A stretch of DNA of 64,000 nt from a bacterium (GTDB lineage: Bacteria; Bacillota; Clostridia; Oscillospirales; CAG-272). The notes beneath the pieces are model-generated. The model did no database searches and was not told the DNA's origin. It saw only the letters and a list, made by a program, of their open reading frames with translations. This document shows positions 371 to 16,478 of the stretch, piece by piece; position 1 is the stretch's first letter; each line of letters starts with the position of its first letter. Location of the stretch: assembly GCA_963628435.1 (NCBI GenBank), contig CAVGEY010000009.1, positions 13,631 through 77,630 on the forward strand, written 5' to 3'. Both the position numbers and the translations under genes were made by a program.

Positions 371-2062
371 ATGGCTTATATGCGTCTTGGCGATTTGCTC
401 ATCTCGGCAGGTGTCATCAACAATAATCAGCTTGATGATGCTCTTGTTCTTCAAAAGCAGACCGGTCAGCGGCTCGGCGATGTGCTTATCGAAAACAATA
501 TCATAACCGAACGCCAGCTTATCGAAGCTCTGCAGATGCAGCTCGGTGTCGAGTATATTGATTTGACAATGGTATCCATTCCTGTGGAGCTTGCCAAATT
601 CGTTCCGCGCGCGATCGCGAAAAAATACTGCGCTGTTCCCGTAAAACTCGTAAAAGACGAGCTTTATGTCGCAATCAGTGACCCGCTGAACTTCCTTGCT
701 CAGGAAGAGATAAAGGCTTCGAGCCATAAACAGGTCATACCGATGATTGCGGCTCACGCCGCGATTGATCAGGCGATTTCCACTCTCTACGGAAACGAGG
801 GAACCGCGCGTGCCATCGAGGAGATGAAAATCGAGGCGGGAACATCGTCAAACGATATTATACCCGCTCAGATGGCTCAGTCGGGTTCGGGCGAGTCGGG
901 CGCACCGACAATCCGCTTTGTAAACTCGATAATCGAGCGCGCCGTCATCGAGCGCGCCAGCGATATTCACCTTGAACCGCAGGACGGAGAAATGGTTGTC
1001 CGTATGAGAATAGACGGCGCACTGCGCAGAATTCTCACCGTTCCGTCAAATCTCCAGAATACCGTAATATCCCGCCTGAAAATAATGGGTAACATGGATA
1101 TATCCGAGCATAGAATACCGCAGGACGGACGTGCAATGGCATATATCAGACAGCACGAAATCGACCTCCGTATCTCTTCGATTCCCACGGTTTACGGCGA
1201 GAAAGTCGTTTTAAGACTTCTCGATAAAACTCAGAATAAAATATCGAGCCGGTCAATCGGCCTTTCGGGAGACGATCTCGAGAAATATCAGAATCTGCTG
1301 AAAAACAGCAGCGGCGTCATTCTTATCGTAGGTCCTACCGGATCGGGTAAATCGACCACGATGTGCGCGATGATTCAGGAGCTGAATCACGAGGAAACCA
1401 ACATTATGACGCTCGAGGACCCCGTCGAATATGATATTCCCGGAGTCAACCAGTGCCAGATTAACGAAAAAACAGGCATGACCTTTGCCGCAGGTCTGCG
1501 CGCGATTCTGCGTCAGGACCCCGATGTTATCTCGGTCGGAGAAATCCGTGACGGCGAAACCGGTACTATCGCCGTTCGTTCGGCTATTACCGGACACCTT
1601 GTTCTTTCGACTCTGCATACCAACGATGCCGTGTCGGCAATCGACAGACTCATCGATATCGGCATAGAGCCGTATATGATCGCAAGCGCTCTCCGCGGAG
1701 TTGTTTCCCAGCGGCTTGTGCGCAAAATCTGTCCGCACTGCAAAAAAGCCTATACGCCGACGTCCGAAGAACTCGCCCTTCTCGGAATTACCGAAGAAAC
1801 CGATGCTGTTTTCTATCGCGGCGAAGGATGCTCGGAATGTTATCATACAGGCTATCTCGGACGCCGCGCCGTCTTTGAAATACTTACCGTAAACGAAAAT
1901 ATGCGCCGCCTTATAAACAGCGGAGCCGATTATGATAATCTGCTTGCGGCGGCAAAAAATTCGAATTTCGTCACGATGCGCGAAAGTTGCCGTAAACTTG
2001 TGCTTGACGGCGAAACAACCGTCGAGGAAACGGCAAAAGCGGTAAATTCAACTGTCGATTGA
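371..2062 (+). CDS. pilB: type IV pilus assembly (extension) ATPase, PilB/GspE family, with N-terminal MshEN/T2SSE_N domain
   Basis: 563 aa. Walker A is GPTGSGKST. The Asp and His boxes are typical of GspE-family ATPases. A tetracysteine CPHC...CSEC is present. The N-terminus carries two RLGxxLIxxG/N..L...L..Q repeats. Confidence 0.93.
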   Translation: MAYMRLGDLLISAGVINNNQLDDALVLQKQTGQRLGDVLIENNIITERQLIEALQMQLGVEYIDLTMVSIPVELAKFVPRAIAKKYCAVPVKLVKDELYVAISDPLNFLAQEEIKASSHKQVIPMIAAHAAIDQAISTLYGNEGTARAIEEMKIEAGTSSNDIIPAQMAQSGSGESGAPTIRFVNSIIERAVIERASDIHLEPQDGEMVVRMRIDGALRRILTVPSNLQNTVISRLKIMGNMDISEHRIPQDGRAMAYIRQHEIDLRISSIPTVYGEKVVLRLLDKTQNKISSRSIGLSGDDLEKYQNLLKNSSGVILIVGPTGSGKSTTMCAMIQELNHEETNIMTLEDPVEYDIPGVNQCQINEKTGMTFAAGLRAILRQDPDVISVGEIRDGETGTIAVRSAITGHLVLSTLHTNDAVSAIDRLIDIGIEPYMIASALRGVVSQRLVRKICPHCKKAYTPTSEELALLGITEETDAVFYRGEGCSECYHTGYLGRRAVFEILTVNENMRRLINSGADYDNLLAAAKNSNFVTMRESCRKLVLDGETTVEETAKAVNSTVD

Positions 2063-2063
2063 G

Positions 2064-3137
2064 GTGTCTATGCTTGAACTCGAACAACTGATTGAGCGCG
2101 CGCAAGAGGCAGGCGCGTCCGATATTCATATTGTGTGCGGTCTGCCGGTAAAAGTCCGTATTCACGGCATTATAAGCCCGCTGGAGGGCGCCGAAGAGCC
2201 GCTGACACATGATGACTGCGAAAGATACGCTTTTGCGCTCGCCGGTGAACAGTATGAGTCAATGAAAGAAATCGGCGAAATAGACCTTGCCAAATCTTTT
2301 TCATGCGGCGCGCGTACGAGAGTTAATATTTTCCGTCAGCGCGGATCGACATCTGCCGCTGTCCGTATTCTCTCCGACCATATCCCCGAAATCGAGGAAC
2401 TTCAGCTGCCGGCGGTAATATCCGAATTTCCCGAATACCGCAGCGGAATCGTGCTTGTAACGGGTGAAACGGGATCGGGTAAGTCGACAACACTCGCCGC
2501 GCTTCTCAATCGTATAAACAATACCCGAAAGGGACATATAATAACACTCGAAGATCCGATAGAATATATTTACTCGCCCGTTCAGTGCGTGATAAATCAG
2601 CGTGAAATCGGTACCGATACACGCAGCTATGCCGACGGTCTCCGCTCGATTCTGCGTGAAGATCCCGATGTCATACTGATAGGCGAGATGCGAGATCTTG
2701 CCACAATAGAGACGGCGCTTACCGCCGCCGAGACCGGACACCTTGTCTTCGCCACTCTGCATACGAATTCGGCGGCAGACTCGATTGACCGTATGGTCAA
2801 TGTTTTCCCCGAAGGACAGCAGCGTCAGATACGCCTGCAGGTGTCGACCACTCTGCGTGCGGTCGTGTCCCAGCAGCTCGTTCCGCGCAAAAACGGCGGC
2901 GGACGAATCGTCGCCTGCGAGATAATGGTCGTCAATAACGCAATCAGAAATATCATCCGCGAGGGCAAAACCCCGCAGATAGACAGTTATATTACCATGA
3001 ACGCACAGAACGGCAGTATCACAATGGATAATGCGCTTCAGAAACTTGTCCGCGACGGTATGATTTCAAGCGAAACCGCGATTTCCTGCTGCCGTGACAG
3101 AGAGGCGTTTTCCGCAAGCATTAACCGCAGATTCTGA
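2064..3137 (+). CDS. pilT: type IV pilus retraction ATPase, PilT family
   Basis: 357 aa. Walker A is GETGSGKST. The motif LTLEDPIEY.. is present and there is no N-terminal GspE_N domain. Size and sequence are typical of PilT. The start lies 2 nt after the pilB stop. Confidence 0.9.
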   Translation: MSMLELEQLIERAQEAGASDIHIVCGLPVKVRIHGIISPLEGAEEPLTHDDCERYAFALAGEQYESMKEIGEIDLAKSFSCGARTRVNIFRQRGSTSAAVRILSDHIPEIEELQLPAVISEFPEYRSGIVLVTGETGSGKSTTLAALLNRINNTRKGHIITLEDPIEYIYSPVQCVINQREIGTDTRSYADGLRSILREDPDVILIGEMRDLATIETALTAAETGHLVFATLHTNSAADSIDRMVNVFPEGQQRQIRLQVSTTLRAVVSQQLVPRKNGGGRIVACEIMVVNNAIRNIIREGKTPQIDSYITMNAQNGSITMDNALQKLVRDGMISSETAISCCRDREAFSASINRRF

Positions 3138-3157
3138 TAAAAGAGAGGTGATTTCGC

Positions 3158-4357
3158 TTGAAAACTTATAAATACAGAGGCCTCTCCGAGGACGGCGTAA
3201 AAGTATCGGGCGTCATTCAGGCGTATGATGAATTTGAAGCTGTTTCAAGCCTGCGCGATACCTGCTCGATTATCACGAAAATCGAACCCGTAAAAGAGAG
3301 CCGTTCCGCAATCGCCGCCGATAAACTCAAAATCAGCGATAAAGATTTGTCGATTATCTGCTCGCAGTTTTCGATTATCCTGACATCGGGTATGTCGATT
3401 GACAGATGTGTCGAAATGGTTGCCGCACAGGCAAAGAATAAATCAATACGGCACATGCTCGAAAAAGTTTCGGAGGATGTGTCGGGCGGATACAGCCTTG
3501 CGCAGAGCTTTTCGAATAACTGCCCCAAACTTCCCGTAACCTTTATCGAAACCGTTCGTGCGGGAGAGCAGGCGGGTACACTCGAACTCTGTTTTGAACG
3601 CCTCTATAAATATTACGATAAATCGGCGAAGACTCGCGCAAAAATCATAAGTACATTGACCTACCCCGCAATGGTGCTTGCCGTTGCCGTGATAGTCTTT
3701 ATGATTATAATGATTTTCGCCGTTCCGATGTTCACCAAAACTTTCAAAGAATTCGGAACCGAACTTCCCGCGATTACAAAAGGACTTATCGCATTTTCCG
3801 ACTTTATAACCGGCTACTGGTGGGCGATTGTCGGTGCGATTCTGCTTTTCTTCTTCATTCGTATGATGATGCGCCGTACCGAAAAAGGACGGCTCTCTCA
3901 GGCCGAGGGCAAGATTTACCGCTCTCCTCTGCGCAGACTCTATATTATGAGCGCCGCCTCTCAGTTTGCCTCCACAATGGCGACAATGCTGACCGCGGGA
4001 CTGCCGATAGTCCGCTCGCTTGAGGTGACGTCCGGCGTTATCTCGAATTACGCAGTCGCGCGCGGTATACGCTCGGTAAGACAGGGAGTGGAGCAGGGAC
4101 GCAGTCTTGTCGACTGCATGAGCGAAAATAAATGCTTCCCCAAACTGCTTTCCGAAATGACCGGTGTCGGCGAACGTTCGGGTAATCTCGAACAGACTCT
4201 CACCGTCGTCGGTGAATATTTCGATAATGAAGTCGGTATCATGACCGACAGAATACTTTCCATGCTTGAACCCGCGATAACAATCGGCCTTGCGGTAATA
4301 ACGGTTGTTCTGCTTCTCGCCGTTTACCTCCCGCTCTTCCAGATGTATAACTTTTAA
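3158..4357 (+). CDS. pilC: type IV pilus platform protein, PilC/GspF family
   Basis: 399 aa. Two GspF-type repeats and three predicted TM helices. TTG start preceded by AGAGAGGTG. Confidence 0.9.
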   Translation: MKTYKYRGLSEDGVKVSGVIQAYDEFEAVSSLRDTCSIITKIEPVKESRSAIAADKLKISDKDLSIICSQFSIILTSGMSIDRCVEMVAAQAKNKSIRHMLEKVSEDVSGGYSLAQSFSNNCPKLPVTFIETVRAGEQAGTLELCFERLYKYYDKSAKTRAKIISTLTYPAMVLAVAVIVFMIIMIFAVPMFTKTFKEFGTELPAITKGLIAFSDFITGYWWAIVGAILLFFFIRMMMRRTEKGRLSQAEGKIYRSPLRRLYIMSAASQFASTMATMLTAGLPIVRSLEVTSGVISNYAVARGIRSVRQGVEQGRSLVDCMSENKCFPKLLSEMTGVGERSGNLEQTLTVVGEYFDNEVGIMTDRILSMLEPAITIGLAVITVVLLLAVYLPLFQMYNF

Positions 4358-4452
4358 GTAGAAGCATGATTTTCGGTATCGTTTGTCTGTTTTCAACCCG
4401 CAGACAATGTATACATACAGACTTTATAAAATAATCGGAAGGAGAACTTCTA

Positions 4453-4833
4453 ATGAAACTTAACAGAAAAGGTTTTACCCTTATGGAAATGCTGATCGTT
4501 GTAGCGATCATCGCAATCCTTATTGCTATTATGATTCCGACATTCACGGCTCAGCTCGAGAAAGCTCGTGAAGCAGCAGACCTTGCCAACATTCGTGCTG
4601 CATACGCAGAAGCTATGGTTGAATATCTTGACACGGGTGCAGCAGTATCCGTTGAATCTGAAAAAATGACACAGTCTAATAGCACTTGGGACAATATAAC
4701 ATGGCCTGAATACCTCGGCACAGCGGTTGCACCTGAAAAAGGCAAAACCGTTACAGTTAACGTTGCAGCTGACGGCACAGTTTCGGTTAATGTCACAGGC
4801 AGCTCAACAACAACAACACCTGCTGGTAACTAA
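4453..4833 (+). CDS. pilA: major type IV pilin (prepilin)
   Basis: 126 aa. The N-terminus is MKLNRKG|FTLMEMLIVVAIIAILIAI, with a basic leader, Gly-1, Phe+1, Glu+5 and a hydrophobic helix. Strong RBS GGAAGGAGA. Small size and its own downstream hairpin fit a major subunit. Confidence 0.9.
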   Translation: MKLNRKGFTLMEMLIVVAIIAILIAIMIPTFTAQLEKAREAADLANIRAAYAEAMVEYLDTGAAVSVESEKMTQSNSTWDNITWPEYLGTAVAPEKGKTVTVNVAADGTVSVNVTGSSTTTTPAGN

Positions 4834-4891
4834 TATAACCATCATACCAATTTGTTTTCGGCTTATGTCGAAAAAGTGAGCTCATGATTTT

Positions 4892-4920
4892 CGCAGGGGC
4901 GGAGGGTTGCCGTCCCTGCG
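4892..4920 (+). terminator. GC-rich hairpin after pilA (probable partial terminator or mRNA stabiliser)
   Basis: CGCAGGGGCGG...CCGTCCCTGCG forms an 11-bp stem with one mismatch. The U-tract after it is poor, so read-through into pilD is expected. Confidence 0.35.
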
Positions 4921-4944
4921 GCTTAAATCGGAAAGGAAACGACT

Positions 4945-5793
4945 ATGCTGCACCTGTCACTCGGACTTGACATCTATATAGCTTTTATCTCGTTCGTTCT
5001 CGGTGCCTGCGTCGGCTCTTTCCTTAACTGTATGTCATGGCGCATTGTTCACGGTATGTCGCCTCTGAAAGGCCGCTCTGTCTGCGATGTCTGCGGGCAT
5101 ACACTGTCCGCGACAGACCTCGTCCCGATTTTCTCTTATCTTTTTCATCGCGGAAAATGCCGCTATTGCGGCGCGAAACTCTCGTCAGCTCATCTTTTTG
5201 CCGAAACGCTGACCGGACTTGTCTTCCTGATTTTTGTTTTCAGATATGATATTTCGCTCCAGCTTCTCGAAATGCTGCTTTTTGCATGTATTCTGCTCGC
5301 CTCATCCTTCGCGGATCTGGAGGGGTATATCATTCCCGACCGCTATGTAATCGCCGGAATAGTTCTGCGTATACCTTTTTATTTCCTGCTGCCCGATTTT
5401 CGCGGGAATCTCATCGATTCTCTTATCGGCGGATTTGCCGTCGGCGGCGGACTTCTCCTTCTCGTTCTTGTTTACGAGAAAATACGCAAAATCGAGGCGA
5501 TGGGCGGCGGTGATATAAAACTGCTTTTCGTTACAGGTCTTTATCTCGGCTGGGCGAAGAACATTCTCTGCCTGCTTCTTGCCTGCCTGCTCGGAATCAT
5601 ATTCGCGCTGGTGACGCAAAAGATAAAACAGAAGAAAAACGCAAAAAAATCTAAAAAGAATAAAAAGAAAAAAGCCGATGCCGATGATGCCTCCGAAAAG
5701 ATTTTCCCGTGGGGGCCGTCAATAGCGGCTGCGGCGATAATCGCACTGCTCGTCGGCGATAAAATAATAAAAGCATATCTGCAACTTTTTTAA
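4945..5793 (+). CDS. pilD: prepilin peptidase / N-methyltransferase, PilD family (A24 aspartic peptidase)
   Basis: 282 aa. N-terminal CDVC...CRYC zinc motif. Catalytic Asp contexts FADLEGYIIPD and GGGDIKL. Multiple TM helices. Contains an unusual Lys-rich insert. Confidence 0.9.
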   Translation: MLHLSLGLDIYIAFISFVLGACVGSFLNCMSWRIVHGMSPLKGRSVCDVCGHTLSATDLVPIFSYLFHRGKCRYCGAKLSSAHLFAETLTGLVFLIFVFRYDISLQLLEMLLFACILLASSFADLEGYIIPDRYVIAGIVLRIPFYFLLPDFRGNLIDSLIGGFAVGGGLLLLVLVYEKIRKIEAMGGGDIKLLFVTGLYLGWAKNILCLLLACLLGIIFALVTQKIKQKKNAKKSKKNKKKKADADDASEKIFPWGPSIAAAAIIALLVGDKIIKAYLQLF

Positions 5794-5821
5794 TCTTCTC
5801 GGAAAGTGAGGGTTCTGTACT

Positions 5822-6808
5822 ATGGGCCGAAATCTAATCGCATTTGATATTGGTGAATCTCAGGTCAAAATCGCATGGTATAATGGGAACACAAGAAAAA
5901 AGACGGTCTGCGCCCCTCTGATTGACAATCTTGTGTCTGGCGGAGAAATTCTCTCTATGGATGCAATGGCCGATTTTCTTCGTGATATCGTAAACGAGAA
6001 TCATATTCCGCACGCATCAGCGGCGGTTATTCTTCCGGCGTCTCTCGTATTTACCCGTAATATCGATGTGCCCGCAATGACCGATTCACAGCTCGGATAT
6101 AACCTTCCTTATGAATTTAAGGACTATCTTACCGAGGAAAAGAGCAGCTATTATTTCGATTATGCCGTACAGGAACTCGTAAAAGACGAGCAGGGAAACG
6201 CAAGCCAGATGCATCTGTTTGCCTGCGCCGCACTTAAAAAGACGATTGCCGATTACCGCGAAATGTTTCATCGCGCGGGCTTCCGTCTTAAATCGGTTAT
6301 TCCGGAGGAATCGGCGTATGCCGCACTTCTCATGGCTGCGCCCGAAGTCGAGGGCGATACCTGCTTTCTCGATATAGGCTATAATGCCGTTCGTATGCTC
6401 TTCTACAGAGGCGATTCGTTCGTTACCCGCCGTACCGTAAATCTCGGTACCCGCGATTTGGTGCAGACACTCTCCGAACTGCGCGGAGTCGATACTCACA
6501 TGGCACATGAGCATCTGCGCAGCAACTACGAAAACGCGCTGAATGAACCCGCGCTTCTCGATTTGTATCATAATATGGCGGTCGAGATAATGAAGGTTGC
6601 AAACTTCTATAATTATAATAACCGCGAGCAGATGCTGAAACGCATATATCTGTGCGGCGGCGGTACCGCGATTACACCGCTTCGCGACGCCATATCCGAG
6701 CTTACCGATTTCGAGCTCTGCTCGGCGGCAGACTGGATGCCGTCAAGCGCCGATATCGAAAGTCCGTGGCTTTATGTTAAAGCCGTCGGCTGCGCGTTGC
6801 AGGCATAA
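5822..6808 (+). CDS. pilM: type IV pilus assembly protein PilM (actin-like ATPase fold)
   Basis: 328 aa. The N-terminus reads IAFDIGESQVKIA (an actin/FtsA-like phosphate-1 motif) and the C-terminus carries LCGGGTAI. The position before pilN/pilO fits. Confidence 0.8.
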   Translation: MGRNLIAFDIGESQVKIAWYNGNTRKKTVCAPLIDNLVSGGEILSMDAMADFLRDIVNENHIPHASAAVILPASLVFTRNIDVPAMTDSQLGYNLPYEFKDYLTEEKSSYYFDYAVQELVKDEQGNASQMHLFACAALKKTIADYREMFHRAGFRLKSVIPEESAYAALLMAAPEVEGDTCFLDIGYNAVRMLFYRGDSFVTRRTVNLGTRDLVQTLSELRGVDTHMAHEHLRSNYENALNEPALLDLYHNMAVEIMKVANFYNYNNREQMLKRIYLCGGGTAITPLRDAISELTDFELCSAADWMPSSADIESPWLYVKAVGCALQA

Positions 6809-6820
6809 GGAGGCGCTCAG

Positions 6821-7420
6821 ATGAATAATATTTTAACCAAACCGATTAAAATCAAAACCGAAAAATATCCGACAAAGCGCCGCGTAAATCTCGCAAAACG
6901 CGAAAATAACACTCAGAATCTTGTTATGCTTATCATCGGAATCGCGCTGATTGCCGTTCTTTGCTTCCTCGTTACGAAAATCGGCGTAATCGATCAGTTC
7001 GCAAGACTTCGCGAAGCCGAAGGCGAATATAATAAGGTACACAATCAGCACGTGGAACTGGATAAAGCCATTGAAGATTATCCGAATGTCGAACATGAAT
7101 ACCACACCTATTCGAGAAAATGGATGACAGGCGAAAACGGTGTTGCCGTGTCCGTCGACCGTCTTAAAGTGCTCGATCTGCTTGAGGCACGCCTTATGTC
7201 ATGCGGAACGGTCAACTCGTTCGTCGTAGACGATGATGTCGTAATAGCAAAGATGTCGGGTATGAACCTTGAGGAAATTTCGGCGATGTTTGCCGAACTT
7301 CAGCGTCAGCCGATAGTTAAGAACGCGGTGCTTACAATCGCTTCGACCGCGCGGGATGCCGACGAAAAACTTGATTTTTCGATAACAGTCAAGCTTCAGC
7401 CGGAAGAGGAGGAGAAATGA
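6821..7420 (+). CDS. pilN: PilN-like bitopic pilus alignment protein
   Basis: 199 aa. Basic N-terminus, one TM helix (LVMLIIGIALIAVLCFLV), then a coiled-coil/ferredoxin-like region. Called mainly from synteny after pilM. Confidence 0.6.
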   Translation: MNNILTKPIKIKTEKYPTKRRVNLAKRENNTQNLVMLIIGIALIAVLCFLVTKIGVIDQFARLREAEGEYNKVHNQHVELDKAIEDYPNVEHEYHTYSRKWMTGENGVAVSVDRLKVLDLLEARLMSCGTVNSFVVDDDVVIAKMSGMNLEEISAMFAELQRQPIVKNAVLTIASTARDADEKLDFSITVKLQPEEEEK

Positions 7421-7959
7421 TGACACGTGCCTTTACGACTCGGGAGAAAATTCTTCTCGTTGTTCTTGCGGTAATGATTATCGCAATCGCTTATTTCAAA
7501 CTCATTCTTGAGCCGATTAACGACTCGATTGCACAGTATCAGTCCAATGCCGATATCGAGCAGGATGAAATAACACAGGATACAATCACCCTTACCCGTA
7601 TGCGCGCAATGCAGAAAGAGCTTGACGAGCTGAAAGAATCGGGAAATAATAAACCCCTGCCGGCGTATGATAATGCCGATGCGCTGCTTGTCGAACTCAA
7701 CACAACGCTTAGCAGCGCAAGGAGCTATTCGCTCAATTTCGGCAGCACATATACGCTGGAATCGAACACATATATTGTTTGCCGTCCGCTCACGCTCGTT
7801 TTCAAAGCCGATGATTATTCGACGGCGCGCAGTATATTGAATACTCTGCACGAGAGTGATAATATTAACCAGATATCCGACTTGTCGATAAACTTTAATA
7901 ACAGCGATTCGAGCGTCGATGTAACGCTCAGTATCAGCTATTACGAGCTTGTCGGTTGA
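7417..7959 (+). CDS. pilO: PilO-like bitopic pilus alignment protein
   Basis: 180 aa. One TM helix (ILLVVLAVMIIAIAYF) followed by a coiled coil. ATGA start/stop overlap with pilN. Called from synteny. Confidence 0.55.
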   Translation: MMTRAFTTREKILLVVLAVMIIAIAYFKLILEPINDSIAQYQSNADIEQDEITQDTITLTRMRAMQKELDELKESGNNKPLPAYDNADALLVELNTTLSSARSYSLNFGSTYTLESNTYIVCRPLTLVFKADDYSTARSILNTLHESDNINQISDLSINFNNSDSSVDVTLSISYYELVG

Positions 7960-8037
7960 TATGCAGACAGACCGGAACCCGTTTATTAGGTCCCGGTTTT
8001 CCGCATATATTGAATTAAATTTATTTTTGTCGAAATT

Positions 8038-8049
8038 TTGAAATTTCAA
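8038..8049. promoter_or_regulatory. perfect 12-bp palindrome TTGAAATTTCAA in the pilO / giant-pilin intergenic region
   Basis: Read directly and self-complementary over all 12 positions. It has the same TTGAA-N2-TTCAA core as the palindrome at 37631-37646 next to the Crp/Fnr gene. Confidence 0.35.
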
Positions 8050-8089
8050 CCCGATTCGGTCCCGTTTATTCGGCATGGAGGGAAAAGAT

Positions 8090-11000
8090 ATGAACAATAG
8101 GAAAGGATTTCGTAAAAACCGTCTGCGTGCCGGCTTTACACTTGTAGAGCTGGTGGTCGCCGTCGCTATTTTGGCGGTGCTTGTAACCGTTACCATGTTT
8201 TCATTGGTTTCGATACGCAAACAGCTTCGCCAGAAGGAGCTTGACAGCAAGGCGGAAACAATCTATGTGAGCGCGATGTGGCGGATGACCGAACTGCGCG
8301 CCTCGGGCTACGAAGTTCTTTATCAGTATACAGACGGCGGCAACGGAGTAAAAAAACTCGGTGTCGTTCCGGTTGACGCGGATTCGAACACCGAACTGCG
8401 CGATGATACGCTCTGTTATATCGAATCGTCGAAGACAGGCGGCGTAACAGGCGAAGCCGCATCCGCACTTCTGCCGGTTGACAGTCTGGATGAGGAACTC
8501 CGCTCAAATCAGTGGCATATAGAATACGATCCCGAAAGCGGAAGTATATACGGTGTATTTTACAGTGAATCGGGCGATATTCCGAATGACGCGGGCGAAC
8601 TTGATAACCTTCGCATAAAAAAACGCAGACTTGCGGCAGGCGCGACCGTCGGCTATTACGGCGGCGACCTCTCTCAGATAGAATCGACCGAATCGCTTTT
8701 CCCCGGTATAACCGTCGAAAATAAAGAAGAACTTACGGCAACATTCTATTGCAATAACCCCACGACAAACGGAAAGCTGACATTCGAGATAACTCTTTCG
8801 GACGGCACAAACAGCTATAAACGCACGATAAAGCATGATGAGCTGACACAGGTAACCGCGCGTACCTATAAATATGTCTGGACGCTCGACAGCTTAAAAT
8901 CGGATGCATCACGCTTCTATGAGCAGACCGAGCATAAACTTGCCTGCGGCACAAAACTGAATATTACGCTTAAAGCAAGCAGTTCGGATACCCTTGTGGA
9001 TGACGTAACCGTCGATACCGCGACAAACAGTCTGTTTGCCTACCGTAAGGAAATGTCATCCGATACCGCAGTGATTTCGTACGCGCGTCATCTGCAGAAT
9101 CTTGACAGTGACTCGCGCGTATCCTCGAAAATCACGAAGGCCGTTCAGATAAGCGATATATCATTCGAAGATAATATAAACGACGACACCGACTGGTACT
9201 CGCTTTACGGTGACGATTTCAAGCCGATTGAAAACGACAGCCTGACCTCTTATGACGGGCAGTCGTCGGCAGGCGATTCTGAACTGTCTACGGCAATTTA
9301 TTCGCTTCATATACAAAACTCGGATAATACCGAGGCGGGACTTTTCCGCACATTCTCCGGCGAAATCAAAAATGTCACGCTGACGGGTACCCGTATCGAT
9401 AAGGGCAGCGATGTCGGCGGACTTGTCGGCAAGGCGGACGGTAAACTGACCGTCGAAAACTGCCGTGTCTACCTGAGTGCGGTAATGGGCGATCTCGATA
9501 ATATCGAAACGGCCGAAGCCGTCGAAGAACTCGAACCGCAGATTTGCGGTGATACCGTCGGCGGACTCATCGGACGCAGCACCGCGTCTGTTTCAATCAA
9601 AAATTCGTTTGCCGCAACCGTTATAAAAGGCAATACATACGCCGGCGGACTTGTCGGAAAGGTTGACGGAAAACTTGCAGCAGCTGACATTTATGCCGAC
9701 TGCTACCTTGTATCGAAGACAACCGGCGGACTTTTCGGCACATCATCAACCGATTCGTCGATTGAAATTGAAAATTTCTACGCCGTCGGCTATCAGTCGG
9801 CATCTGTCGGCGAGGCGGGAATTGTATACGGTAATATCAAATCGGCAAAGAACGGATATTCCGCCTGCAGCTTCACGACATCCGCGGGACTTACCGTCTA
9901 TTCTACCGCAAAATCGGGTGATATGTCGAATGTCTATTACCTTTCGGGCGGAAATTCGGTTGAAGGCAGCTCATATATCTCGTATGAAGAACTGAGCAAA
10001 AACGGCACCGAAAAACTCGGAAATGAGTTTACCGCCAATTCGGGCGATGCCACCTATCCGTATAATCTGCTCGAACAGGGACTTTCCACATATTCTTATC
10101 CTCGACTCTCGACTCTTGACCACTACGGCGACTGGCAGGCCGAATTCGAGTCGGGCAGACTCGTATATTTCGAACGCTATGCCGACGGAAGTTACGGCTT
10201 CGAAGGTGCAAACCTTTCTACTCTTTCAAACAGCAAAGTTGCGGTCGGTGACGGCTATGCGATTGCCTATACATCCGAAACAAGGCCGGACGCGTCTGCT
10301 TCTGTAACCGTTAAATACGGCAAGAATGAGGACAGCCTGACATTTACCGCAGATACACAGTATGAAGTCGTATACGACAATACGACATATTGCCTTGTCC
10401 CGCTTCCGAAGAAAGTGTCCAATCCGACACTTGATAAGTCTGTCGAAAGCTTCTATCAGAAGATTACGGTGGCGGATGACGGCGGCGAAACCGAATATTA
10501 CTATAACCCGTATTTCGCAAAGACGGTCACAACCAATGATAAAACACCCGATGCTCCGTCTGTGATTTATGTCCGTACGGCGCGTCAGCTTTACGCGATG
10601 AGCCTCTACTATAATAAATATGCCGACGAAACATTAAAGAGTACATTCAGTCAGGAACTTGACATCGATTACAGCGGCTACCTCTGGAATGAATATTCGT
10701 CGTCAGCTATCGTAAGACAGGCTCCGATTGACGGCGAAAACGGCTTTGTCGCGGCGTATAACGGAAACTGCCATACAATAACCGGAATATCGATTGAATC
10801 GACCGCCGCCGATACCGGACTTTTCGGAACGGTCGGCTCGAAGGGATCGCTTCAGAATATCTTCCTGACAGGACGTGTCGGTAAAGAATCGGTATCCCGC
10901 CGCACAAATAACGGCGTTGCGGCATACGGCAGCCGTGATTCGTCCGAGATCGGCGCACTTGTCGGCGTCAATAACGGAACGATTACCAACTGCTCTGTGA

Positions 11001-14000
11001 GCGGCTATTCAATCAGCTACTACGGATATAACCGAAATACAGTATATGTCGGCGGACTCGTGGGCGAGAATAACGGCACGATAAGCCGCTGCTCGTCGGA
11101 TGCGTCGGGCATAGAACTTGCCGAACATATTTCGTATGCATACGCAGGCGGATTTGTCGGTAAAAACAGCGGAACTATCGCAAACTGCTATACAACCGGC
11201 CGTATCAGCGTGCTCAGCGCAAAGAGCAGTACGGTTTGGATAGGCGGATTCGCGGGCAATAACGCAAACGGCGTAACGCGTAAATGTTACTCGGCGGTCG
11301 CGCTCGTCTCTTCGGGATCTTCCGAATCTTACGGCTTTGCGCGCATCGGCGGAGCGGTTATAGACTGCCGCTACCTTGACGGCGGTACATATTCGTATGC
11401 CGGAGAGATTTACGCATATAACGCATCTTCCAATACCTTCACAAAGAACGGACTTGCCGCCGGCGTGATGATAACCGGAAGAGAATTGCAAAACCTTAAC
11501 CTTTCGGGCTTTAAGAAAGCCGACAGCTCGAAAAATCACGATGAAACCGGCACGGCATCCGATAATTATCTCTATCCCGCGGTAGTAACCGCAAACGGAA
11601 AGACCGTGCATTTCGGCAACTGGCCGATACAGGAAAATATCGGATCACTCGGCATATTCTATTGGGAATATGAGGATTACGGATCGAATAACGGCTATCA
11701 CTTCAGCTATCTCGGCACCGATAACGGCGAAATGATAAGCGGAAACTCGCTCTGTACCGAACATGATGACGGCGGCGTTGTCACCTCTTACGGCTACGGC
11801 TATTTCTATAAGACAGACGGCGTAAAACCGACCTTTGCCGCATCCGATACAAATCTCGGAAGCATCAGCAGAGAGGCGAGCGAAGAAATCGCCGAACAGA
11901 TGTCCGGATATACCTTTGTCGCATACGTTACGGGTGAGGAAAGCGGCAAACTGCATACCACAAAATATACGCAGAATGTCACATGGACACTGACATATAC
12001 CGACAGAACAACAGGCAGTTCGGTATATACCTATTCGGTATGTCCTTTCTTCGGCAACTCAATCAGCCTTGATTCGCTGAAACTTTCGGGACAGACCGCC
12101 GTCTCAACCGGTAACGCCAAACCCGGTACAAGCGGTAATACCTACGAAATCCGCTCGGAAGCTCAGCTTCAGTTCATAAACTGGAACAGCTATAAGCAGA
12201 CGGCGACATATTCGATTATGAGTTCAAACTATTCGGCAGAATCGAGCGATACGGCAACCCGAACAGAGACAACATATGACTGGTGGGGAAGGCCGAGTAC
12301 AAAAGATGTACCTTATAATATCCCGGTTCGCGACCGCTATCCCTATCTGCTTTCGGGCGACCCCGACAGCACCCCTACAAAGACACTTGATCTTTATTGG
12401 ACGCAGTCGCACGACTTGGACGCATACGCCGAAAACGGAAATAAAAATGTCAATTTCACTCCTATCGGCAGCTTCTATGACAAGAGCGGAAACGCTAGCG
12501 CCGACTCAACCGCATATATTGCCTACTTCCCGTACAAGTATGACGGACAGTCGTATACAATTAAAAATATCGAAATTCATTCCACATGTCAGGCTGTCGG
12601 TCTGTTCGGTGTAACGGCAGGCGCACAGCTGCAGAATATCGTCATGTATTCCGAGTACGGCAACACCATCGAGCATAACTCGAATGAAGCCAACTGGTAT
12701 ACTCTCGGCGGACTTGCAGGACTTGCGGGCAGCCGTAAATCATCGGCAACCGACACTACCGAAAGCTATTTCAAAAACTGCACCGTGTCAGGTTATAATA
12801 TCGTGGACAGTCACTCAAATGACCCCGGCTGGGGCGGCGGATGTGTCGGCGGACTTGTCGGCATGACCAATATGGATATTGAGAACTGTTCGGCTGTCAA
12901 TGATATAAATCTTAAACCTACATATAACCAGGGTTGGAAAAACCTCCGTGTGGGCGGTATCGCGGGTGTTGCACGTGCTACGATCAATTCCTGCTATGCG
13001 GGAGGTTCAATAGTCAGCAATGTAACTCAGAATGACTCGGGCAATCAGAGCACTATGTCTATATGGGTAGGCGGCATTGCAGGCGGTATCGTTGTCCGTA
13101 ACACCGGCAACCTCTCAACGCTTGTCGGATTCTGCAACCGTACTCTTCTTGTCGCTAACTGTTACAGCTTTGTTGATATGCCCGCAGGACCTAAAACACT
13201 CGGACAGACCGGTTATAAGCATGTTCGCGCATCCATGTCGATTGCGTCCAACGGCGAAATGCTGACACCTTCAAACTGGTTTACAAAGACGGGAGCGATA
13301 GGCGTTGCGGCAAGAAATGTCCGCATTTATAACTGCTACGCGCTTGAGAGCAAAATTTCGGAAACCACCGATTACAAAAACTTTAAGAATTATACAAGCT
13401 TTAACGGTACAGATATAGCAACCCTTGACACAAACAGTAATAAAGACCATGTCTATGTTTACAATAACCGCTCAATGTATTTGAGCTTTGACGAGATGGC
13501 CGATGCGGCAACTCTTGCCGGATGGCTCAATACCAAGCAGTCAAACGCCGTATATGATACGTGGACGACCAATGCATATAGGGACAGCCGCGACGATACC
13601 TATACTACTCCGCTTTCGGGCAACTTCTCCACGGTAACGGTAACCGAACACGGCGTTTCGATTGACGGTAAATACAGCTATCCAGGAACAGACAGCTCGC
13701 TTGACGGTATAAACTATCCGTTCCCGACCGTTCTTACACAGACCGACGTTTTCGGAAATACCGTAAATGTTCATTACGGCGCATGGCCGAAATCGGGTAT
13801 ATACTGGGACGAAACATCGGTATCGCTTGATCTCTATTCAAACAGAAAGGCAGGCGACGGCGGAGAAACCGTTCCGCTTGTCTCGGTAAAACTCAGACTC
13901 TACGGCAGCATCAGAAAGACGCTCACAAAGAACGGCATCACAATTCGCGATGATATCGGACAGATTCTCGCTGATGGCGATATCCCGTTTGAGGTTTACT

Positions 14001-14920
14001 CGGTATCCTCCTATGCCGAAGACAGCATCGGCGGTTACTATATCGTAACATTCAGGGGCATAAAAGAGGGCATCGCGGTCGCAATCGCCGAAATCGACGG
14101 ATACGAATCTGATCTGACAATCAACGTTGTCAATGAACTTATAATCGACAGCTCCGACGGAAAGATTTCGCTGAAGTCCGGAGATGAAAAAGAAGTCGAA
14201 TTTACATTCTATGTAAACGGCGACGACGGAAAGCGGCAGATTAAACCCGAATCGGGCAAACTCAGCTGGACTGTTACAATCAAGAGCGGCGATAACGCGG
14301 TAATATGCGGCGATGACAGCGTTACCTATGATGCTGCAAACGGCATACTGAAAATCAATGTGATAGCAAGACTGCTCGAAGATATATCGATGCAGGAGGC
14401 GCATATTTCGGTAAGCTGCACATACGCCTACGGCAGCGGCGAATACGAGAAGATGACCCAAACGGCCGATATAATCGTTGAGGTTGAATCTCCCGATTTC
14501 GTCTGCCTGAAACTCGGCGATTCGGCAAACGGCTACCGCTTCATGCATAGCTATACCGATAGCGACAGACGACCGATCGGAAATCTCTCTTCCGACCTTA
14601 CGGACGGTGACGGACTCTATGTCCGCAGCGAGTATACAACAGTAAACGCTGTCAATATGAGCATATTCACATTTACCGTTGACGGTGAAGAACTTGCGCC
14701 CGACAGCGACGGATATGTACGCCGCTTCTCGGCTGAAAGCGGACAGTATGAAACGGTTGCGAAAATCGTTCTCGGTGAAAAGACTCAAAGCGATAACGGA
14801 TACAGCTACTATTCGGTATCTGTGACAGACTATACACTCACGAGCGATGCGATACTCTCCGCAAGACTTGGCGACACAACGACCGTTTCTGTTACGGTCG
14901 CGGGCAATTCCGGAAATTAA
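8090..14920 (+). CDS. giant modular type IV pilin-like protein: prepilin signal, three GLUG-type repeat blocks and a C-terminal beta-rich (Ig-like) region
   Basis: The N-terminus MNNRKGFRKNRLRAG|FTLVELVVAVAILAVLV has Gly-1, Phe+1 and Glu+5. RBS GGAGGG lies 7 nt before the ATG at 8090; an alternative ATG at 8075 adds 5 aa. It is a single uninterrupted 6.8-kb ORF. Motifs such as VGGLVGKADGKLTVENC, VGGLVGENNGTISRC, AGGFVGKNSGTIANC and VGGIAGVARATINSC recur in three blocks at about nt 9330-9880, 10800-11390 and 12590-13350. Confidence 0.85.
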   Translation: MNNRKGFRKNRLRAGFTLVELVVAVAILAVLVTVTMFSLVSIRKQLRQKELDSKAETIYVSAMWRMTELRASGYEVLYQYTDGGNGVKKLGVVPVDADSNTELRDDTLCYIESSKTGGVTGEAASALLPVDSLDEELRSNQWHIEYDPESGSIYGVFYSESGDIPNDAGELDNLRIKKRRLAAGATVGYYGGDLSQIESTESLFPGITVENKEELTATFYCNNPTTNGKLTFEITLSDGTNSYKRTIKHDELTQVTARTYKYVWTLDSLKSDASRFYEQTEHKLACGTKLNITLKASSSDTLVDDVTVDTATNSLFAYRKEMSSDTAVISYARHLQNLDSDSRVSSKITKAVQISDISFEDNINDDTDWYSLYGDDFKPIENDSLTSYDGQSSAGDSELSTAIYSLHIQNSDNTEAGLFRTFSGEIKNVTLTGTRIDKGSDVGGLVGKADGKLTVENCRVYLSAVMGDLDNIETAEAVEELEPQICGDTVGGLIGRSTASVSIKNSFAATVIKGNTYAGGLVGKVDGKLAAADIYADCYLVSKTTGGLFGTSSTDSSIEIENFYAVGYQSASVGEAGIVYGNIKSAKNGYSACSFTTSAGLTVYSTAKSGDMSNVYYLSGGNSVEGSSYISYEELSKNGTEKLGNEFTANSGDATYPYNLLEQGLSTYSYPRLSTLDHYGDWQAEFESGRLVYFERYADGSYGFEGANLSTLSNSKVAVGDGYAIAYTSETRPDASASVTVKYGKNEDSLTFTADTQYEVVYDNTTYCLVPLPKKVSNPTLDKSVESFYQKITVADDGGETEYYYNPYFAKTVTTNDKTPDAPSVIYVRTARQLYAMSLYYNKYADETLKSTFSQELDIDYSGYLWNEYSSSAIVRQAPIDGENGFVAAYNGNCHTITGISIESTAADTGLFGTVGSKGSLQNIFLTGRVGKESVSRRTNNGVAAYGSRDSSEIGALVGVNNGTITNCSVSGYSISYYGYNRNTVYVGGLVGENNGTISRCSSDASGIELAEHISYAYAGGFVGKNSGTIANCYTTGRISVLSAKSSTVWIGGFAGNNANGVTRKCYSAVALVSSGSSESYGFARIGGAVIDCRYLDGGTYSYAGEIYAYNASSNTFTKNGLAAGVMITGRELQNLNLSGFKKADSSKNHDETGTASDNYLYPAVVTANGKTVHFGNWPIQENIGSLGIFYWEYEDYGSNNGYHFSYLGTDNGEMISGNSLCTEHDDGGVVTSYGYGYFYKTDGVKPTFAASDTNLGSISREASEEIAEQMSGYTFVAYVTGEESGKLHTTKYTQNVTWTLTYTDRTTGSSVYTYSVCPFFGNSISLDSLKLSGQTAVSTGNAKPGTSGNTYEIRSEAQLQFINWNSYKQTATYSIMSSNYSAESSDTATRTETTYDWWGRPSTKDVPYNIPVRDRYPYLLSGDPDSTPTKTLDLYWTQSHDLDAYAENGNKNVNFTPIGSFYDKSGNASADSTAYIAYFPYKYDGQSYTIKNIEIHSTCQAVGLFGVTAGAQLQNIVMYSEYGNTIEHNSNEANWYTLGGLAGLAGSRKSSATDTTESYFKNCTVSGYNIVDSHSNDPGWGGGCVGGLVGMTNMDIENCSAVNDINLKPTYNQGWKNLRVGGIAGVARATINSCYAGGSIVSNVTQNDSGNQSTMSIWVGGIAGGIVVRNTGNLSTLVGFCNRTLLVANCYSFVDMPAGPKTLGQTGYKHVRASMSIASNGEMLTPSNWFTKTGAIGVAARNVRIYNCYALESKISETTDYKNFKNYTSFNGTDIATLDTNSNKDHVYVYNNRSMYLSFDEMADAATLAGWLNTKQSNAVYDTWTTNAYRDSRDDTYTTPLSGNFSTVTVTEHGVSIDGKYSYPGTDSSLDGINYPFPTVLTQTDVFGNTVNVHYGAWPKSGIYWDETSVSLDLYSNRKAGDGGETVPLVSVKLRLYGSIRKTLTKNGITIRDDIGQILADGDIPFEVYSVSSYAEDSIGGYYIVTFRGIKEGIAVAIAEIDGYESDLTINVVNELIIDSSDGKISLKSGDEKEVEFTFYVNGDDGKRQIKPESGKLSWTVTIKSGDNAVICGDDSVTYDAANGILKINVIARLLEDISMQEAHISVSCTYAYGSGEYEKMTQTADIIVEVESPDFVCLKLGDSANGYRFMHSYTDSDRRPIGNLSSDLTDGDGLYVRSEYTTVNAVNMSIFTFTVDGEELAPDSDGYVRRFSAESGQYETVAKIVLGEKTQSDNGYSYYSVSVTDYTLTSDAILSARLGDTTTVSVTVAGNSGN

Positions 14921-14927
14921 AAATAAA

Positions 14928-14965
14928 TCTGTCTTACAGTCGGCGATGTCCGACTGTAAGACAGA
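14928..14965. other. perfect 16-bp stem-loop just after the giant pilin stop codon
   Basis: TCTGTCTTACAGTCGG, loop cgatgt, then CCGACTGTAAGACAGA. There is no U-tract on the plus strand. An A-rich 5' flank would give a U-tract on the minus strand. Confidence 0.5.
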
Positions 14966-15010: not shown

Positions 15011-15694
15011 ATGCGGAAAATAATCGGAAAACTGAATAATAAGTCCGGCGCGTCTATGATGATGGCTCTGCTTCTGATGTTTGTCGCCGTGATGGTCAGT
15101 GCGGTAATAATTTCATCGGTAATCAGCGCGACAACTGCAATCCGCAATGACAAGGAACAGCAGCAGGCATATCTGTCGGTCAGCTCTGCGGTCGAACTTA
15201 TCCGTGACGAACTCGATTCGGGCAACTGCGATTATTCGATTGTAACCGTAAAGAAATACACGAGTGATTCCGACAGAACAAATGACAGAAATGGCATAGA
15301 CGGTGGCACCACCGAAAACGAAGGTGACGGCATTTTTTGGGAGATTATAAAGAGCGGCATCGCTTATCTCGATAAGAACCCGACTGCCGCATTTAGTAAA
15401 ACCTACACGATAAACGCCGACGGAGACGATTCTGTCAGTGCCGAAGTCGCGATGAAACTTAACAGCTCCGGAAATTACAGCCTTACTGTATGGTTCACAG
15501 GCGGCGGCAGCGAAAAATACCGTATCTGCATGACCGCGGAGGGAATTAAAGACGGAGATTATGAAGATACAACTACCGAGGAAAAAGATGATTCCGGGTG
15601 GTGGTGGTGGTCAACATCTACTAAATATTATGTCCGTACCACAAGATCATCGATTCAGTGGAAAAACACCCGCGTGACACGTAAGGAGGCTTGA
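15011..15694 (+). CDS. PilX/GspK-like minor pilin (non-canonical prepilin N-terminus)
   Basis: 227 aa. The N-terminus is MRKIIGKLNNKSG|ASMMMALLLMFVAVMVSAVIISSVI: a basic leader, Gly and a hydrophobic helix, but no Glu+5, as in PilX/GspK-type subunits. Contains a WWWW run. Confidence 0.6.
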   Translation: MRKIIGKLNNKSGASMMMALLLMFVAVMVSAVIISSVISATTAIRNDKEQQQAYLSVSSAVELIRDELDSGNCDYSIVTVKKYTSDSDRTNDRNGIDGGTTENEGDGIFWEIIKSGIAYLDKNPTAAFSKTYTINADGDDSVSAEVAMKLNSSGNYSLTVWFTGGGSEKYRICMTAEGIKDGDYEDTTTEEKDDSGWWWWSTSTKYYVRTTRSSIQWKNTRVTRKEA

Positions 15695-15697
15695 CGT

Positions 15698-16006
15698 ATG
15701 AAAAATACGAAAAATATGAAAAAGCTCCGTGATAGAAAAGGCGAAACCCTCATCGAAACATTGACCGCCCTGCTTGTCTGCACGCTTGTGCTGCTTTTCC
15801 TCTCAACCGCGATTTCGGTTGCCGCAAAAATCAATAAAAAAATCAGAGAAACCGATATTTCGTTTAACTACGGCACATCGGATGCCGACATCATAAATGT
15901 CAGAATCATCGATGAAAACAAACAGACCGTCGGCTCGGCAAAAGCATACCGCTATACCGATGATATCGGATATCACTATTATAAAGGGGCAAACGGCAAT
16001 GACTGA
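15698..16006 (+). CDS. minor pilin (prepilin-type N-terminus)
   Basis: 102 aa. The N-terminus is MKNTKNMKKLRDRKG|ETLIETLTALLVCTLVLL, with Gly-1, Glu+5 and an unusual Glu at +1. Confidence 0.7.
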   Translation: MKNTKNMKKLRDRKGETLIETLTALLVCTLVLLFLSTAISVAAKINKKIRETDISFNYGTSDADIINVRIIDENKQTVGSAKAYRYTDDIGYHYYKGANGND

Positions 16007-16478
16007 GGCTAAGATTAAATCGAAAAAGGGCGTTACCCTCGTCGAAATGCTCTGTACCGTCATTGTCCTGCTGCTCATAACATCACTGATGGCAATCGGT
16101 GTGCAGCTCGCCGTGCGCTCACTGCGTACACTTGTTATGGATTCCGAATCGCAGGTGCTCTGCTCGACAATCAGAGCATCGGTCAGCGATGAATTGCGAT
16201 ATTCGGGAACGACAACGGTAATCGGCGGAAAAATCGGCTTCTTCAGCCAAAATTACGGAGAGAATGTCGAATATTCGACAAATGAAGACGGACAGGTAAC
16301 TCTCGGCGGCAACAAAATTCTCTCGTCAAAATCATATACTTACGATATGAGAGCGTCGGTAACTCTTAAATCATACGACAACTCATCGAAAACTTTCGGC
16401 GTATCGGTAAAAGTTACCGATTCGGACGGTAATCTGCTCGCAAGCTCCGATTTTCAGGTTCGGCGGCTCAATAGCTGA
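15999..16478 (+). CDS. minor pilin (prepilin-type N-terminus)
   Basis: The track ORF begins at 15897. The ATG at 15999 overlaps the previous stop (ATGACTGA) and gives MTEAKIKSKKG|VTLVEMLCTVIVLLL with Gly-1 and Glu+5. 159 aa. Confidence 0.7.
   Translation: MTEAKIKSKKGVTLVEMLCTVIVLLLITSLMAIGVQLAVRSLRTLVMDSESQVLCSTIRASVSDELRYSGTTTVIGGKIGFFSQNYGENVEYSTNEDGQVTLGGNKILSSKSYTYDMRASVTLKSYDNSSKTFGVSVKVTDSDGNLLASSDFQVRRLNS

Follow-up and report, generated by a model that had tools for sequence, protein, structure and literature searches.

The 64,000-nucleotide stretch of DNA analysed here (the window; contig CAVGEY010000009.1 of assembly GCA_963628435.1, positions 13,631 to 77,630 of the forward strand, from a bacterium of the lineage Clostridia, Oscillospirales, CAG-272) carries a type IV pilus (T4P) operon in which an uninterrupted open reading frame (ORF) of 2,281 codons, at 8075..14920 on the + strand, lies between pilO and three small minor-pilin genes. 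An initial annotation made from the sequence had proposed that this ORF encodes a giant pilin in which a prepilin signal is joined to three blocks of GLUG repeats and an immunoglobulin (Ig)-like tail. Our analysis supports the protein as a true type IV pilin by its signal, by the homology of its first helix (alpha1) and by its operon context; it is about 15 times the normal pilin size and belongs to a large unstudied family. PilD, the prepilin peptidase, and PilB, PilT, PilC, PilM, PilN and PilO are encoded in the same operon, and the pil operon at 371..7959 lacks a secretin gene. The features of the locus are collected in Table 1.

Table 1 Features of the pilus locus and of the giant pilin within the window (a slash in a peptide marks the predicted cleavage site)
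Feature	Position (nt)	Strand	Description
pilB	371..2062	+	T2SSE + MshEN (Pfam)
pilT	2064..3137	+	Pfam/NCBIfam
pilC	3158..4357	+	Pfam/NCBIfam
pilA, major pilin	4453..4833	+	126 aa; Pfam/NCBIfam
pilD, prepilin peptidase	4945..5793	+	A24_N_bact + Peptidase_A24
pilM	5822..6808	+	Pfam/NCBIfam
pilN-like	6821..7420	+	Pfam/NCBIfam
pilO-like	7417..7959	+	Pfam/NCBIfam
Terminator-like hairpin + U-run	7969..8001	+	GACCGGAACC...GGUCCCGGUUUUCC; GACCGGAAyCC...GGnCCCGGUUUUCUGCUUUU; between pilO and giant gene
Giant pilin gene	8090..14920	+	prepilin of 2,276 aa; one hydrophobic segment only (aa 11-44)
Class III signal peptide	8090..8221	+	basic leader aa 1-15, Gly15 last; predicted cut before Phe16; Glu20 = Glu+5; hydrophobic alpha1N to ~aa 44
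Pilin module, ~aa 1-195	8090..8674	+	55-residue alpha1 helix aa 18-72, then strands 109-113, 141-146, 153-159, 188-191 (AlphaFold2)
Beta-sandwich domain, ~aa 200-320	8687..9049	+	AlphaFold2 model; Foldseek only generic Ig-like / beta-sandwich
GLUG module 1, aa 325-690	9062..10159	+	cap YARHLQNL; coils aa 443-546; end HYGDWQ 678; Glug 34.6 bits
Spacer 1, aa 685-825	10142..10564	+	beta-rich; no family match
GLUG module 2, aa 820-1185	10547..11644	+	cap VRTARQL 828; motifs 955, 988, 1020, 1052; end HFGNWP 1174; Glug 45.2 bits, 3 stretches
Spacer 2, aa 1180-1350	11627..12139	+	predicted beta-rich domain, pLDDT mostly 87-94 (model residues 1-170)
GLUG module 3, aa 1345-1905	12122..13804	+	cap IRSEAQL 1354; coils aa 1540-1661; end HYGAWP 1895
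C-terminal tail, aa 1900-2276	13787..14917	+	about four predicted Ig-like beta-sandwich domains; least conserved part
Minor pilin, GspK/ComGG-like	15011..15694	+	227 aa; N-terminus ...SG/ASMMMA, without Glu+5
Minor pilin	15698..16006	+	102 aa; RKG/ETLIETL, Glu+5 present
Minor pilin	15999..16478	+	159 aa; KKG/VTLVEML, Glu+5 present; start overlaps previous stop by 8 nt

A ribosome binding site (GGAGGG, 8079-8084) lies directly 5' of an ATG at 8090, which is for that reason the likely start codon, and the likely product is a prepilin of 2,276 amino acids (aa; MNNRKGF...). The predicted mature protein has 2,261 aa, a mass of 244.6 kDa and a pI of 4.65, and a scan of the protein sequence found no C-terminal sorting motif or C-terminal anchor. 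Such a frame could in principle be the result of mis-assembly, of fused ORFs or of a decaying pseudogene, and the one point in favour of an artefact is the unprecedented length itself. By our own arithmetic a stop-free stretch of 2,281 codons would occur by chance, assuming equal codon use, with a probability of (61/64)^2281 ~ 1e-48. The 2,281-aa call is found at identical length in six near-identical copies from separate assemblies with no split ORF seen, which bears out the original claim of more than 2,200 residues in one unbroken frame. In addition, 1,360 matches were obtained when 5.8 billion proteins were searched for homologues; the best 120 are all full length (2,218-2,457 aa), align over 93-100% of the query and are 44-60% identical to it. 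The fusion of pilin and GLUG repeats, whose conservation the initial annotation had proposed to check, is thus retained in relatives; 31 species-level genomes have the same gene order. Given the six assembly copies, the more than 120 full-length homologues and the shared gene order, we treat the ORF as real and an assembly artefact as effectively refuted by conservation, the probability left to it being negligible.

The N-terminus of the translation reads MNNRKGFRKNRLRAG/FTLVELVVAVAILAVLVTV (slash as in Table 1). It matches the prepilin family N_methyl (PF07963) with 27.1 bits, and up to 29 bits in a second scan, over aa 11-35 (cut-off 21.2), and the NCBIfam prepilin domain TIGR02532 with 22.5 bits (cut-off 16.3), which confirms the prepilin signal as first described, with its basic leader, Gly-1, Phe+1, Glu+5 and hydrophobic run. 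The signal is kept across the family: Gly-1, Phe/Tyr+1 and Glu+5 are present in 119 of 120 full-length homologues (the best 120 of the 1,360 matches), and a G/F-T-L-x-E signal lies within the first 80 residues in 128 of the 147 distant representatives listed from a wider HMMER search, which used the N-terminal 330 aa as query against 1.84 billion cluster representatives. The remaining 19 start inside the helix, which we attribute to probable truncation of the gene calls. When the family profile was compared with all PDB sequences only type IV pilin alpha1 helices were matched, among them Geobacter PilA-N (1e-5), Myxococcus xanthus PilA (7.5e-4) and Streptococcus sanguinis PilE1 (2e-3), and PDB sequence and profile searches with the giant pilin returned nothing outside pilin alpha1. 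An AlphaFold2 model of the N-terminal region, built from a 70-sequence alignment, has a mean predicted local distance difference test (pLDDT) score of 76, with values of 84-91 on the helix and 85-88 over aa 120-170.

Beyond the pilin module and a predicted beta-sandwich the protein is dominated by GLUG repeats. The Glug family (PF07581) scores 48.3 bits on the whole protein against a cut-off of 20.5, all seven of the GLUG strings quoted in the initial annotation are present in the translation, and G-G-[LIFVM]-[VAIL]-G motifs occur at aa 443-546, 955-1052 and 1540-1661, inside the three nucleotide blocks named there, so that the claim of three GLUG blocks holds. Scored on its own, block 3 reaches 18.7 bits and thus falls below the cut-off that the other two exceed (Table 1); we nevertheless count it as GLUG because its hhalign probability to block 2 is 98.8%. 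The same comparison, performed on family sub-alignments, gave 97.9% for modules 1 and 2 (303 columns) and 90% for modules 1 and 3, and by this measure the three modules are paralogous. Each begins with a cap-like motif and ends with Y-P...H-[YF]-G-x-W-[PQ], and the GLUG motifs are spaced by 32-33 aa in module 2 and by 27-48 aa in modules 1 and 3. In the literature (PMC4021314, PMC9723798) repeats of the GLUG type figure as solenoid repeats and as putative adhesin elements. Module 3, in a model covering aa 1180-2276 (mean pLDDT 80), is built of repeated triplets of 3-5-residue strands, a solenoid-like pattern as would be expected of a beta-solenoid.

Beta-helices are often glycan-degrading enzymes, and it could be supposed that the GLUG/beta-helix modules are catalytic, the pilin then carrying an M26-type IgA protease or a tailspike-like polysaccharide depolymerase. 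Consistent with this, the N_methyl-GLUG architecture has been discussed as a predicted M26 peptidase (Raynaud et al. 2021, PMC8179133) and module 1 has a weak match to Peptidase_M26_N (16.6 bits, cut-off 27.7). That family is however the non-catalytic N-terminal region of the protease; the HExxH motif is absent from the giant pilin and from all 147 distant relatives listed, and no peptidase or glycoside-hydrolase/lyase family was matched even at E<=1. We therefore consider an enzyme-bearing pilin very unlikely, a small probability being left to a depolymerase activity. The more specific identity of an M26 IgA1 protease was rejected on the absence of HExxH and of any Peptidase_M26_C match, the Peptidase_M26_N match being below threshold.

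The C-terminal region of about 370 aa had been described as beta-rich and Ig-like, and this is upheld by a model of four beta-sandwiches and by Foldseek searches of the C-terminal model (PDB, BFVD), which returned mostly tandem Ig arrays such as the S-layer protein SbsC, Yersinia InvD/InvE and NCAM. With a query of several domains the TM-scores are accordingly low. No Pfam Ig family matched the last ~375 aa. The C-terminal Foldseek lists, which had been sought with beta-helix enzymes or adhesins in view, support an Ig-like tail as modelled and are uninformative on the solenoid modules. NCBIfam holds no curated family over the body of the protein. The tail is also where homologues diverge most, with identities of 14-32% as compared with 45-73% along the pilin and GLUG modules; against the related loci (tblastn), PilB is 58-81% identical, the giant N-terminus 35-64% and the tail 23-47%. 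Some orthologues carry extra distal Flg_new (Listeria-Bacteroides repeat) domains.

On the basis of these searches, giant GLUG pilins form a broad family of which the window gene is typical, and it is not a singular fusion. At E<=1e-3 the HMMER search with the N-terminal 330 aa matched 1,818 clusters; stricter thresholds of E<=1e-10 and E<=1e-30 left 623 and 101, with members mostly of 2,000-3,400 aa and of up to 5,147 aa (P0251). Among the 147 new representatives listed, 90 have at least 2,000 aa and 15 at least 3,000 aa, the match is always N-terminal in the target protein, and most carry three H[YF]GxW motifs together with 7-12 GLUG-like motifs. Pfam searches of four representatives found Glug, alone or with N_methyl, in three and N_methyl only in one.

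The giant gene is carried by 31 loci among GTDB species representatives, mostly from uncultured Oscillospiraceae or 'Clostridiales' metagenome-assembled genomes of the gut and including one cultured isolate, Hominenteromicrobium mulieris CLA-AA-H250 (CIP 112194), whose orthologue is 45% identical and lies in the same operon. The order pilB-T-C-A-D-M-N-O, giant gene, 227-aa, 102-aa and 159-aa pilin genes is found (tblastn) in every related locus with enough flank, and in the rearranged loci L027 and L030 the giant gene is still beside the three small minor pilins. In five more distant loci (L008, L026, L027, L028 and L029) the next minor pilin lies 7.5-9 kb from the start of the giant gene, from which giant pilins of ~2,500-3,000 aa may be estimated. 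Seven contigs (L003, L004, L006, L020, L024, L027 and L028) are binned under unrelated names, as Lachnospiraceae, Bacteroidaceae, Eggerthellaceae, Gordonibacter, Hallerella, Agathobacter and Anaerovibrio. As bins with names such as Bacteroidaceae and Eggerthellaceae contain this operon at 55-60% identity, we think it likelier that short contigs were mis-binned than that the taxa named truly carry it.

The initial annotation had placed the giant gene between pilO and three minor-pilin genes, with PilD encoded in the same operon. The position stands, with the correction that the first of the three neighbours lacks the canonical F+1/E+5 and has the look of a GspK/ComGG-type apex subunit. This 227-aa pilin has weak, below-cut-off N-terminal matches to GspK and ComGG (NCBIfam), and its N-terminus G/ASM(L/M)MA without Glu5 recurs in 24 of 24 related loci. 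In published models a subunit without Glu5 caps the filament and minor pilins form an assembly-priming tip complex, the tip being the only place at which bulky modular pilins fit (PMC8179133, PMC9934059, PMC10628169); as it lacks Glu5, we take the 227-aa pilin as the candidate apex subunit. The giant, 227-aa, 102-aa and 159-aa pilins are encoded together and all but the 227-aa protein have Glu5, as in a HIJK-type core minor pilin set, and a giant that acts as one of four core minor pilins would be the most economical reading. In one related locus (L002, 18414-19040) a fifth pilin-like gene (208 aa, N_methyl) lies past the three small minor pilins, with a PilA-like N-terminus (67% identity, tblastn).

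The interpretation that we favour, and which we hold to be reasonably probable, is that the giant protein is a minor modular pilin that is cleaved by PilD and enters a tip complex with its three neighbouring minor pilins, and that the ~2,000 aa that remain form an adhesive fibre. The single N-terminal hydrophobic helix would insert the prepilin in the membrane, where the PilD of the operon would cut after Gly15 and methylate Phe16. The pilin module (alpha1 and beta-sheet, ~aa 16-195) would then join the 227-aa GspK/ComGG-like apex and the 102-aa and 159-aa pilins in a priming complex from which the PilA filament would grow. Pilus growth runs from tip to base and bulky cargo fits nowhere but at the tip; the ~2,000 aa beyond the pilin module would therefore extend outward from there as a long fibre consisting of the beta-sandwich, the three putative GLUG beta-solenoid modules with their beta-rich spacers and a distal Ig-like string, and for the same reason of tip-to-base growth a tip position would avoid a steric problem in polymerisation. 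Binding of a substrate or of a host or partner ligand would fall to the fast-evolving distal end, and retraction, expected from the presence of PilT in the operon, would pull the cell towards what is bound. What the analysis shows is the signal peptide, the arrangement of domains, the paralogy of the modules, their conservation and the synteny; PilD cleavage, filament incorporation, tip position, adhesin role and ligand are all things that we infer.

A number of points weigh against this interpretation. A tip position gives no account of how a 245-kDa ectodomain passes the Gram-positive wall. No known adhesion-domain family matches the giant pilin and the Glug family is itself without demonstrated function, and the term beta-solenoid is here read from strand periodicity and the literature, not from comparison of three-dimensional structures. 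At the N-terminus confidence in the model is moderate, being weak at aa 90-120, and a Foldseek search of it against PDB returned no pilin heads; the top matches are generic beta-sandwiches (factor XIII, KirBac, arrestin) with TM-scores <0.26. Because of this the pilin fold past alpha1, and any H/I/J assignment, are read only from secondary structure: Foldseek gave no assignment to an H/I/J/K pilin subtype and the NCBIfam matches cover alpha1 only.

The unconfirmed pilin head, together with an ectodomain that is very large and probably elongated and with the lack of any characterised pilin near this size, would also suit a membrane-anchored surface fibre that merely borrows a pilin-type signal. 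Its N-terminal helix would be a signal-anchor, whether cut by PilD or not, and the protein would remain membrane-bound, or sit at most on a very short stub, and span the wall by its own length. We regard this as unlikely, as the Glu+5 and the G/F site, needless for a plain anchor, are strictly kept, the gene always sits in a minor-pilin cassette, within complete T4P operons with PilT among their genes, and alpha1 is homologous to that of pilins known to polymerise. Rather improbable too, and more speculative, is the reading in which one subunit of ~250-600 kDa is itself the functional fibre, tens of nm long and wall-spanning, with the PilA filament and PilT serving mainly as a piston for extrusion and retraction and the variable Ig/Flg_new end setting substrate or partner specificity in gut Oscillospiraceae. 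Were it true, T4P could bear covalent cargo an order of magnitude above the current view.

The favoured tip pilin has its closest parallels in PilB and PilC of S. sanguinis, which are tip-located modular pilin adhesins (PMC8179133; Shahin 2023, PMC9934059; PMC10628169). Like PilB (vWA module) and PilC (lectin module), the giant has a class III signal and a pilin module followed by grafted non-pilin modules, it is encoded in a monoderm host by a pil-operon gene beside minor pilins of which one lacks Glu5, and the proposed tip place and adhesin role are the same. PilB and PilC are however of ~50 kDa with one extra module, as compared with the 245 kDa, three solenoid modules, spacers and Ig-like tail of the giant, there is no sequence similarity past alpha1, and the operon of the giant differs in its PilM/N/O and in encoding four minor pilins instead of three. 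PilY1/PilC, the tip adhesin of diderm type IVa pili, provides an example of a very large effector shown at the tip through a minor-pilin complex, and its mode of working is the one proposed for the giant. Unlike the giant, whose cargo is covalently fused to a pilin, PilY1 is a non-pilin without a class III signal that docks by a C-terminal beta-propeller, a domain for which no Pfam match was found in the giant pilin. ComZ of Thermus thermophilus and CofB of enterotoxigenic Escherichia coli are likewise pilins with a beta-solenoid or beta-sandwich extension and a presumed tip location (as summarised in PMC8179133), but they are several-fold smaller and come from different systems, a competence pilus and a type IVb pilus respectively. 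With GLUG surface proteins and the N-terminal region of M26 IgA1 proteases the giant shares PF07581 repeats above cut-off and the character of large extracellular, presumed adhesins of gut or host microbes (PMC4021314, PMC9723798); those proteins have Sec signals with LPXTG or other anchors, whereas the giant would be anchored by its pilin helix and has no catalytic domain.

By its N_methyl and Glug matches the giant is a modular pilin sensu Raynaud et al. 2021, and their Dataset S1 contains an entry, IPR012902-IPR011493 (N_methyl + GLUG, six proteins; PMC8179133), in which both signatures likewise occur in this order; the giant probably belongs to the same family. The entry is tabulated only and read as a predicted M26 peptidase, in contrast with the giant, which has no peptidase motif, and comes without description of size, triple-module layout, synteny or family breadth. 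The largest characterised modular pilins are of ~50 kDa and the extreme multi-domain case cited has 860 aa (PMC8179133), and in full-text literature searches we found no description of pilins in this size class or of pilin-GLUG proteins. The novelty that had been claimed for a giant repeat-bearing pilin is thus upheld as regards size and was overstated in other respects, as the combination of pilin and GLUG is already in Dataset S1 and the metagenomic family is very large. Modular pilins and N_methyl-GLUG proteins being known, the undescribed aspects are the size, the layout with three putative solenoids and a very wide occurrence among gut Clostridia.

Current ideas of what a pilus tip can bear derive from modular pilins of ~50 kDa and from PilY1, which is not a pilin, and a conserved, widespread family of pilins of 2,000-5,000 aa would stretch these limits and sharpen the question of how tip cargo is loaded and passes a thick Gram-positive wall without a secretin. 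The family is found in uncultured Oscillospiraceae and other Clostridia of the human gut and in cultured Hominenteromicrobium mulieris, and is a plausible candidate for a colonisation or attachment factor. For the genus Hominenteromicrobium a link with the response to checkpoint immunotherapy has recently been described (PMC12390848); the Nature 2025 paper on Hominenteromicrobium makes no mention of pili. In present annotation the orthologues are named only 'GLUG motif-containing protein' or 'pseudopilin PulG'.

Two intergenic regions flank the giant gene. The terminator-like hairpin between pilO and the giant gene (Table 1) folds in the window with -12.5 kcal/mol (z = -2.3) and is kept in four of five aligned loci, namely the window, L007 (9801-9842), L005 (2247-2285) and L015 (9914-9956); in the fifth, L011, another GC hairpin occupies this position. 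Such an element could act as an attenuator of transcription ahead of the minor-pilin cassette, the subunits of which would then be kept scarce. Between it and the giant gene we observed an AT-rich stretch (8020-8075) with a repeated motif, CCCGTTTATT / GGTCCCG, near 7979 and 8062. The minor-pilin cassette may have an internal promoter or operator in this stretch; the repeat shows no visible conservation in the other aligned loci. Right after the giant stop codon lies a perfect 16-bp hairpin (14928-14965) without a U-run on the + strand, in an intergenic region that folds with -31.9 kcal/mol, but 13 related loci, which have the next gene close behind, do not conserve this hairpin.

Downstream of the pil operon are two GGDEF genes (16568-17728 and 17797-18888) and, on the minus strand, a GGDEF-EAL gene (18968-20923). 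An Rfam scan of the whole window found no cyclic di-GMP (c-di-GMP) riboswitch or other RNA. MshEN, present in PilB, is a known c-di-GMP-binding module, and its occurrence together with the GGDEF genes that adjoin the operon suggests possible c-di-GMP control of piliation. A GGDEF gene is also found 3' of the cassette in L004, L007 and L011 (44-52% identity).

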